From Microcoleaceae cyanobacterium (GTDB lineage Bacteria; Cyanobacteriota; Cyanobacteriia; Cyanobacteriales; Microcoleaceae), in NCBI GenBank assembly GCA_051652765.1, contig JBOFUV010000063.1, positions 1-24,262 on the forward strand: a stretch of 24,262 bases of DNA, given 5' to 3'. A program made the position numbers and the translations under genes. Shown piece after piece: positions 17,741 through 18,620 of this stretch (the first letter of the stretch is position 1; every line of letters begins with the position of its first letter). The notes under the pieces were generated by a model, which saw only the letters and a list, made by a program, of their open reading frames with translations, did not search any database and had not been told where the DNA came from.

Positions 17741-17760
17741 AATGTAGCCCTGAATACATT
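17741..17760. promoter_or_regulatory. Putative NtcA-binding site
   Basis: aatGTA-gccctgaa-TACatt is a perfect TGTA-N8-TACA box with extended AAT/ATT symmetry; GTA at 17744, TAC ends at 17757. Confidence 0.65.
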
Positions 17761-17816
17761 TTGTGAGTTTTTCTTGACAAGACTGATCAATCCAGTGCAT
17801 ATTTCCGGAATTGCGG

Positions 17817-17825
17817 TGCTATGAT
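17817..17825 (+). promoter_or_regulatory. Extended -10 promoter element
   Basis: TG-C-TATGAT. Predicts a TSS near 17832, about 13 nt before the riboswitch aptamer. Confidence 0.55.
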
Positions 17826-17842
17826 CTGTGAAGAAAAAATAA

Positions 17843-17930
17843 GTCGTTCATCTCCCCCAACCGCTGAATCAATTTTTGGGCTCTAGCGATCGAGGAAGAC
17901 GGAAGTAGGGTTAAACCCCGAAGGAACGTA
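17843..17930 (+). ncRNA. Glutamine riboswitch aptamer (glnA RNA motif) with extended P2
   Basis: P1 CGTTC(17845-49)/GAACG(17924-28); 5' CGTTCATCT; junction AGACGGAAGTA; P3 GGG-TTAAA-CCC; 3' CGAAGGAACG. This matches the glnA-motif consensus CGUUCAUCU..AGACGGAAGUAGG..CCGAAGGAACG. Confidence 0.85.
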
Positions 17931-17965
17931 CAACTTTTAATCCTTTGATAGTAGGAGAAACGGTT

Positions 17966-18184
17966 GTGGTAGTGCTGCCTTCCTTAATTTATTTGTCCAT
18001 CTCTGGTTTGGCCGCTCTTCTGAGCATTGCCGTCAGTGAAGAGATTGTTCAAGTCTTTTCCAGGGGTGTTGCGATTTGTTGCTTGATTCTTGGCCTTGTC
18101 TCAGCGCCATTATTGATGCTTTTGATTCTTGCAACTCCGTTGCTGGGATGGCAACTTCGTGAACAGTTGCAGAGAAATTTTTGA
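17966..18184 (+). CDS. Small hypothetical membrane protein (72 aa) downstream of the glutamine riboswitch
   Basis: RBS AGGAG (17953-57), 8-nt spacer, GTG at 17966: MVVLPSLIYLSISGLAALLSIAVSEEIVQVFSRGVAICCLILGLVSAPLLMLLILATPLLGWQLREQLQRNF, with 2-3 hydrophobic helices around an EEIVQ loop. Confidence 0.7.
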   Translation: MVVLPSLIYLSISGLAALLSIAVSEEIVQVFSRGVAICCLILGLVSAPLLMLLILATPLLGWQLREQLQRNF

Positions 18185-18222: not shown

Positions 18223-18505
18223 GATCAACAACGCAGGTTTGATGAAAGATCAACGCGGGTATGGCATGAGATCAACGCGGGTTTAATGAAAGCTCAACGC
18301 GGGTTTAGTAAAAGATCAATGCGGGTAGGGAGTGAGATCAACGCGGGTTTAGTAAAAGATCAACGCGGGTTTAATGAAAGATCAATGCGGGTTTAGTAAA
18401 AGATCAATGCGGGTAGGGAGTGAGATCAACGCGGGTTTAGTAAAAGATCAACGCGGGTAGGGAGTGAGATCAAGTTGATCATGCTCTGTGATCAACGCGG
18501 GTAGG
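18223..18505. repeat. 22-bp-period tandem array: AGATCAA(C/T)GCGGGT core + 8-nt variable spacer, 13 units
   Basis: Cores start at 18248, 18270, 18292, 18314, 18336, 18358, 18380, 18402, 18424, 18446, 18468 (degenerate) and 18490, with a degenerate first unit at ~18223-18226. Confidence 0.92.
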
Positions 18506-18512
18506 ATGACTG

Positions 18513-18612
18513 CCCTCACCCTAAATCCCTCTCCCAGAGGGGGAGAGGGACTTTAACCACCAATTCTGGCTCCCCTTCTCCCGTCTTGGGAGAAGGGGTT
18601 GGGGGATGAGGG
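18513..18612. repeat. Composite palindromic dispersed repeat (REP/SDR-like, 100 bp)
   Basis: Outer IR CCCTCACCC../..GGGATGAGGG enclosing two hairpins, TCCCTCTCCC-agagg-GGGAGAGGGA and CCCCTTCTCCC-gtctt-GGGAGAAGGGG. Confidence 0.8.
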
Positions 18613-18620
18613 ATAATGTT

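Follow-up and report, generated by a model that had tools for sequence, protein, structure and literature searches.

The glutamine-I riboswitch described here precedes the gene for a membrane microprotein of the family to which Ssl3769 of Synechocystis PCC 6803 belongs, and this pairing is real, conserved and apparently undescribed. The reading that we favour, with a probability of about 0.57, is a gifB-like switch that turns translation ON, whose response is probably weakened in this copy by the U at position 60 of the aptamer. Under this reading, strands of the aptamer would be captured in the ligand-free RNA by a hairpin over the RBS and by the first codons. Glutamine would cause P1 and the pair between G23 and N60 to form, stripping those pairings. 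The hairpin so shortened would let ribosomes load more often, and the level of the protein would go up when glutamine rises.

The DNA comes from a Microcoleaceae cyanobacterium (GCA_051652765.1, contig JBOFUV010000063.1). The window, ie the whole stretch that was analysed, comprises positions 1-24,262, and the element itself lies at 17741..18184. The features are given in Table 1. The aptamer is the single Rfam match in the window and the second of two glutamine-I riboswitches carried by the genome. The other copy (G000:C123) precedes an IF17-like gene and has an NtcA box over its -10, so the copy studied here is the non-gifB one. An operon link with nadE was ruled out, as nadE precedes the gene only in the three genomes of the source genus. 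Outside that genus the genes next to the leader and microprotein gene vary, being in other relatives presumably typA-like, dnaK-like or unrelated, and the conserved unit is therefore the leader plus the gene.

Table 1. Elements of the leader and gene, with the related fusion proteins. Positions are those of the window.
Feature	Location	Strand	Basis
NtcA-consensus palindrome TGTA-GCCCTGAA-TACA	17743..17758	.	sequence
Candidate second promoter TTGACA-18-CATATT	17774..17803	+	sequence
Extended -10, TG-C-TATGAT (TGnTATGAT)	17817..17825	+	sequence; conservation
Glutamine-I (glnA, RF01739) aptamer	17843..17932	+	Infernal/Rfam, folding
Alternative helix CGAAGGA (17919-25) : UCCUUUG (17941-47)	17919..17947	+	folding
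UA replacing linchpin C60 and the next base	17929..17930	+	numbering from crystal construct
Expression-platform hairpin burying SD and GUG start	17929..17968	+	folding
SD AGGAGA	17953-58	+	sequence
72-aa hydrophobic three-helix protein, Ssl3769-like family	17966..18184	+	GTG start; conservation
Coding start pairing back to aptamer 17892-17902 (including G22/G23)	17975..17985	+	predicted ligand-free fold
Membrane-anchored DUF4278 proteins (family domain, then 2-3 YRG repeats)	L130, L147-L152, L154-L156, L159, L160, L164		

The match to RF01739 scored 44.5 bits (gathering score, 35; E 7e-7) and covered the full model (1-53), which bears out the full glnA-class aptamer claimed in a preliminary description of this DNA. 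P1 is made by 17845-49 and 17924-28, P2 is long, G22-G23 are at 17901-02 and P3 is at 17908-19; the P1 and junction strands GGAAGUA and GAAG are both present. In the numbering of the crystal construct, as given in PMC5393176 and PMC11477058, C60 directly follows the P1 3' strand and pairs with G23 on ligand binding. Here that position is a U, which had been overlooked, and the G23-C60 Watson-Crick pair is replaced by a possible G.U. All other core bases are intact. Position 60 is C in both same-genus relatives, G001 and G002, and U60 occurs in 4 of 37 switches of this family and in none of 37 other glutamine switches. On the family tree UA at 60-61 has three independent origins, and two of those branches still fold ON, suggesting a tolerated variant. 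A contig from metagenome run X1 also has U60, its two differences over 17917-18012 both lying elsewhere (one contig, depth 3), so that U60 and the longer alternative helix discussed below are not assembly errors.

The U at the linchpin base may weaken this copy. A decaying switch, without a glutamine response at physiological levels, with translation kept low by the hairpin and expression set by the promoter, perhaps through the NtcA site, is in our view unlikely, though it accounts for several of the observations. Besides the G23.U60 pair, these are an RBS hairpin modelled as about 98% closed whether or not the aptamer is formed, a sister genus (L073, L077 and L079) that has lost the ligand core while keeping P2, P3 and the promoter, and at least six gains or losses of the aptamer forced on the protein tree. 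Decay sits less well with the intact remainder of the core and its above-cut-off score, with X1 contigs which are 5-9% different elsewhere yet match this copy throughout 17794-17890 and 17917-17951, and with the two ON-folding branches that share UA at 60-61.

The direction proposed for the switch comes from comparison with gifB (IF17). The type-1 switch of Synechocystis PCC 6803 (RF01739; PMC6212724) shares with the present one the aptamer class, translational control in cyanobacteria and, as proposed in that paper, an anti-RBS hairpin that starts from the linchpin position. The present locus differs in leading a membrane microprotein without DUF4278, in its long P2 and the U in place of C60, in a hairpin that covers the start codon as well, and in an NtcA box placed far upstream and not over the -10. 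Klaehn et al. (PMC6212724) proposed for gifB that the RBS is paired with the linchpin base and the bases next to it, and is released when glutamine draws these away, and called this mode of action not proven. The gifB-type loci in our comparison show an anti-RBS hairpin beginning at position 60, and the hairpin of Table 1 begins at the same place. Folding agreed with the earlier claim that it buries both the SD and the GUG: alone it is worth -10.7 kcal/mol, and within the full leader its pair probabilities are about 0.95-0.98 (0.64 for the closing pair). Because it occupies the gifB platform position, the buried SD is no sign of the OFF logic which the preliminary description had drawn from it.

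The cost of opening the RBS was then compared across loci, with constraints on P1 and on the junctions and with position 60 withdrawn; in the family set of 37, L064 and L065 were counted apart and L115, without a P1 5' strand, was omitted. Formation of the aptamer made opening cheaper in 30 of the 37 family loci and costlier in four (median -2.95 kcal/mol). In the same test opening was cheaper in 16 of 24 gifB-type loci and costlier in six (class median -0.8), and cheaper in 11 of 13 with other aptamer classes. The present copy gave the largest OFF-direction value of the 37 (+2.2); over 18 folding settings it was OFF in 12 and ON in five. Its nearest orthologue, G002, was ON in 18 of 18 settings and G001 in 14 of 18. 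The method is coarse and does not resolve differences of around 1-2 kcal/mol, for the genome's own gifB-type switch, too, came out OFF in 12 of the 18. Folding with and without the aptamer therefore supports ON logic for the family and leans to OFF for this copy; an OFF switch with NtcA activation is not supported for the family as a whole.

In the predicted ligand-free fold the first codons also take part, and in many family members the aptamer GAAGG pairs with them. Of 32 homologues with the aptamer, 21 had CUUC or CCUU among their first codons, vs 11 of 33 without it (Fisher p 0.013, with kin not independent). Pairing between the arm that follows the aptamer and its own RBS was worth -4.8 kcal/mol, vs -3.8 kcal/mol with the RBS of other loci (32 distinct family loci, permutation p 2e-4), and was better than the median in 20 of the 32, again with kin not independent.

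The preliminary description had also proposed that CGAAGGA:UCCUUUG breaks the RBS hairpin in the absence of glutamine. The helix can form and breaks the aptamer. At -8.7 kcal/mol the duplex is the strongest of 74 switches (next, -6.4; G002, -5.5), and in ligand-free nascent RNA it dominates until about 17962 (P 0.98 at 17948 and 0.85 at 17962) before it is replaced by the RBS hairpin (P 0.02 by 17985). The rest of the proposal is not supported, as the helix has a probability of 0.009 in the full-length ligand-free leader and, once it has formed, the SD and the bases following it are predicted to be taken up by the released P1/P2 strand 17845-55, which leaves the SD buried. The probability of an unpaired SD was 0.32 free, 0.32 bound and 0.25 in the forced alternative fold. 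The free-minus-bound difference in SD openness at four transcript lengths was +0.09, -0.18, -0.06 and 0.0, without a rise, and in these models the SD of the ligand-free leader is not open as an OFF switch would have it. Transient pairing of the aptamer 3' strand occurs in 8 of 24 gifB-type switches as well, and a helix of this type exceeded a probability of 0.3 in 2 of the 37 family loci, the present locus not being one of them.

These results bear on a lineage-specific inversion, in which the ligand-free helix would open the RBS co-transcriptionally, glutamine would lock P1 and let the hairpin close, U60 would uncouple the ligand from melting of the hairpin and NtcA would activate from -81.5. 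An ancestral ON switch would then have been flipped to OFF in this lineage by a few substitutions: by C60U, by an anti-anti-SD helix two pairs longer and by completion of the NtcA box. The strength and nascent dominance of the helix, the largest OFF-direction value in the family, the perfect upstream box and the presence of U60, the longer helix and the box together in X1 contigs all lend themselves to it. We nevertheless consider it decidedly improbable, given the re-pairing of the SD, the flat SD openness and the similar transient pairing in gifB-type switches; it would also reverse the nitrogen logic of the family, described below. The position of the box tells in the same direction, for in Synechocystis 71% of the NtcA sites that activate are at -41 to -44, and the fact that X1 keeps the box is, at 9% divergence, not significant.

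Upstream of the leader, the sequence agrees with the earlier account of a perfect TGTA-N8-TACA (within AATGTA..TACATT, 17741-17760), an extended -10 and, from a TSS placed by inference at about 17832, a box centre near -81.5. TATGAT is unchanged in all five aligned relatives, and the X1 contig is without a difference over 17794-17890, which spans the -10. The second candidate promoter, overlooked before, would put the TSS near 17810 and the box centre at about -60; its TTGACA is kept in G002, G005 and G029, and its CATATT half is not. The box is thus at neither promoter near -41.5, the class II position of NtcA. Activation from upstream, class-I positions of this sort is known in the CRP family. 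That the palindrome might be a terminator was ruled out, since no terminator is predicted and the hairpin is worth only -2.9 kcal/mol.

The genome has 28 intergenic TGTA-N8-TACA sites vs 12, 16, 19 and 11 with spacers of 6, 7, 9 and 10, so that roughly half of such sites are due to chance. The box is therefore above background, with about even odds of being genuine, and is not decisive. It is unchanged in the approximately 91%-identical X1 contig, degenerate in G002 (GTA-N8-CAC) and absent from G001. Perfect boxes lie within 400 nt in 5 of 37 aptamer-bearing loci vs 7 of 35 aptamer-less ones. Those five are the present locus, L012 and L116 (both over the core promoter, the former in both paralogues), one that falls within P3 and another at -172; the aptamer-less loci include L126-L128, where the box is over the -10. 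Among gifB-type loci, NtcA boxes are over the core promoter in 20 of 27. When the homologues were checked for both elements, the aptamer was kept in 37 of 72 family loci and a box at the present position in just one of those 37. The proposed activation by NtcA from a class-I position therefore finds no backing, as the box is not kept in G001 or G002 and the other promoter-proximal boxes of the family overlap the core promoter. The upstream box is likely to be a lineage-specific site with a secondary role or none.

The small hydrophobic membrane ORF of the preliminary description is a real gene, judging by its conservation. It has a GRAVY of 1.36, and differs from the X1 contig at eight third, four first and no second codon positions. 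A single-sequence search matched it in 36 of 61 relatives, and a profile search found the family in 98 of 301 genomes of the phylum. The ORF has the family's acidic residue after helix 1, where Glu26 is invariant, and the Ala-Pro kink before helix 3; the AlphaFold2 model has three helices (pLDDT 71, pTM 0.31). Pfam gave no match to the ORF at E 0.5, PF14105 (YRG repeats) included, and with 32 family members Pfam and NCBIfam gave no family matched by more than two members, all of them weak. The 'riboflavin synthase subunit alpha' database label of some relatives was rejected for want of Pfam or NCBIfam support. The profile had no match among PDB sequences at E 1, Foldseek against the PDB gave one meaningless match (E 7.3), and the ESM Atlas held only unnamed cyanobacterial clusters.

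The 72 distinct family loci examined are the best scoring ones and not a random sample. Both core motifs of the aptamer lie upstream in 37 of them (37 genomes, about 10 families), many coinciding with Infernal matches. The main clade of the protein tree has 63 rows, 37 of them with the aptamer, a pattern which fits an old association of aptamer and gene with repeated loss. The source genome has three more distant paralogues (G000:C115, C64 and C98), two of which were checked and have no aptamer upstream.

Ssl3769 falls within the family (profile E 2.2e-14; the L126 protein is identical to it). It has 74 aa and the same helix pattern as the 72-aa protein, and is transcribed; its gene differs in being without a glutamine aptamer, and a GTA-N8-TAC overlaps its -10-like hexamer. 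Expression data place ssl3769 among 669 differentially expressed genes; its level in -N is 4.1-fold below that in ammonium, gifB being 5.0-fold lower. A search of supplements found ssl3769 in expression tables only, not among NtcA-bound targets, and the primer and sRNA tables of PMC8092223 and PMC13362535 did not contain it. PMC8136920 lists ncl0710 and ssl3769 on a joint transcript. A Cyano-1 RNA (RF01701) was seen at L126:2428-2506, just upstream of the ssl3769 promoter.

The core-promoter boxes and the lower expression of ssl3769 in -N point to nitrogen excess, not starvation, and speak against the double-gated nitrogen-starvation microprotein first suggested. IF7, IF17 and PirA are described as likewise small, raised by ammonium and repressed by NtcA, the logic suggested for this protein; they differ in being soluble with known targets, and are not known to resemble this protein in sequence.

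Distant members of the family are fused to DUF4278 (hhalign probability 97.6, E 2.6e-12), and PF14105 was found in 10 of 11 such proteins. In these fusions, from Microcystis, Calothrix, Trichormus and Synechocystis, the N-terminal 62 or so residues are homologous to the 72-aa protein (24-38 bits to the family, vs no more than 0.5 for reversed and 10.6 for shuffled controls); they differ in the two or three YRG repeats after the membrane part and form a distant subfamily. No aptamer or NtcA box was found upstream of the 12 fusions checked. A search for longer proteins gave none at E 0.001, a weak blank because the genome searches did find these fusions. DUF4278 is the N-terminal domain of IF17. 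From the fusions we infer that the microprotein is a regulator of nitrogen excess acting at the membrane, within an IF17/DUF4278 network. Its partner might, as a guess, be a protein with YRG repeats, or else an importer of nitrogen, for instance Amt, of which the genome has one.

Glutamine riboswitches of cultured cyanobacteria are described as controllers of IF17 (PMC6212724), and in Table S2 of that paper 77 genome cases are left with the label 'hypothetical, no CDD match'. PMC8400943 mentions that Limnospira has a second riboswitch, without a name for its gene. In searches that did not extend to subscription journals or to the supplements of preprints, we found no paper linking glutamine riboswitches to the Ssl3769-like family, nor one that says what Ssl3769 does. 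The present assignment gives one recurring target of these riboswitches a name, that of a widespread membrane microprotein family represented by Ssl3769 in the model strain. If it is right, the glutamine response should have a membrane arm that has so far gone unstudied, and the assignment also offers a handle on the role of DUF4278. The alleles with a natural U60, together with the sister alleles that lack the core, make up a series on linchpin control of sensitivity and polarity. If the inversion were true, a nitrogen-excess microprotein would have become a starvation one, a natural polarity flip comparable with the un-inverted sister alleles of G001 and G002.

Several other leaders were noted. 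Those of L073, L077 and L079 (genus g4), L107-L109 and L114 have a changed core with P2/P3 or P1-like stems kept, and may be relics or variant-ligand switches; an Rfam scan of such degenerate leaders at the E-value cut-off gave no match and no new family. L087, L089 and L095 have glutamine aptamers with P3 inserts of about 100 nt which the standard genome scan missed, and published counts may accordingly be low; those of L089 and L095 are motif matches only, missed also by the Rfam E-value scan. In a third class (L030, L031, L035, L038, L040, L041, L048, L053, L058 and L059), which has no NtcA boxes, the aptamer leads small acidic soluble ORFs with a common F-D-F-x-L-W-A-x-x-V-(K/R)-x-Q-like motif. 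A fourth (L013, L022 and L034) leads ORFs of about 93 aa with a W-R-L-L-I-I-A-L motif, and L011 has two tandem units of aptamer and short YRG-peptide 300 nt apart.

The segment 18060-18250, which takes in the ORF's 3' half together with the DNA that follows, has duplicates, 91-96% identical, at two other sites in the genome (G000:C145:12369- and C56:2467-), each directly after a large repeat-rich surface-protein gene. Further downstream, 18247-18473 of the window is an array of about 10 copies of a 22-bp tandem repeat, which recurs at many sites in the genome; an inverted-repeat element comes next, near 18515-18615.
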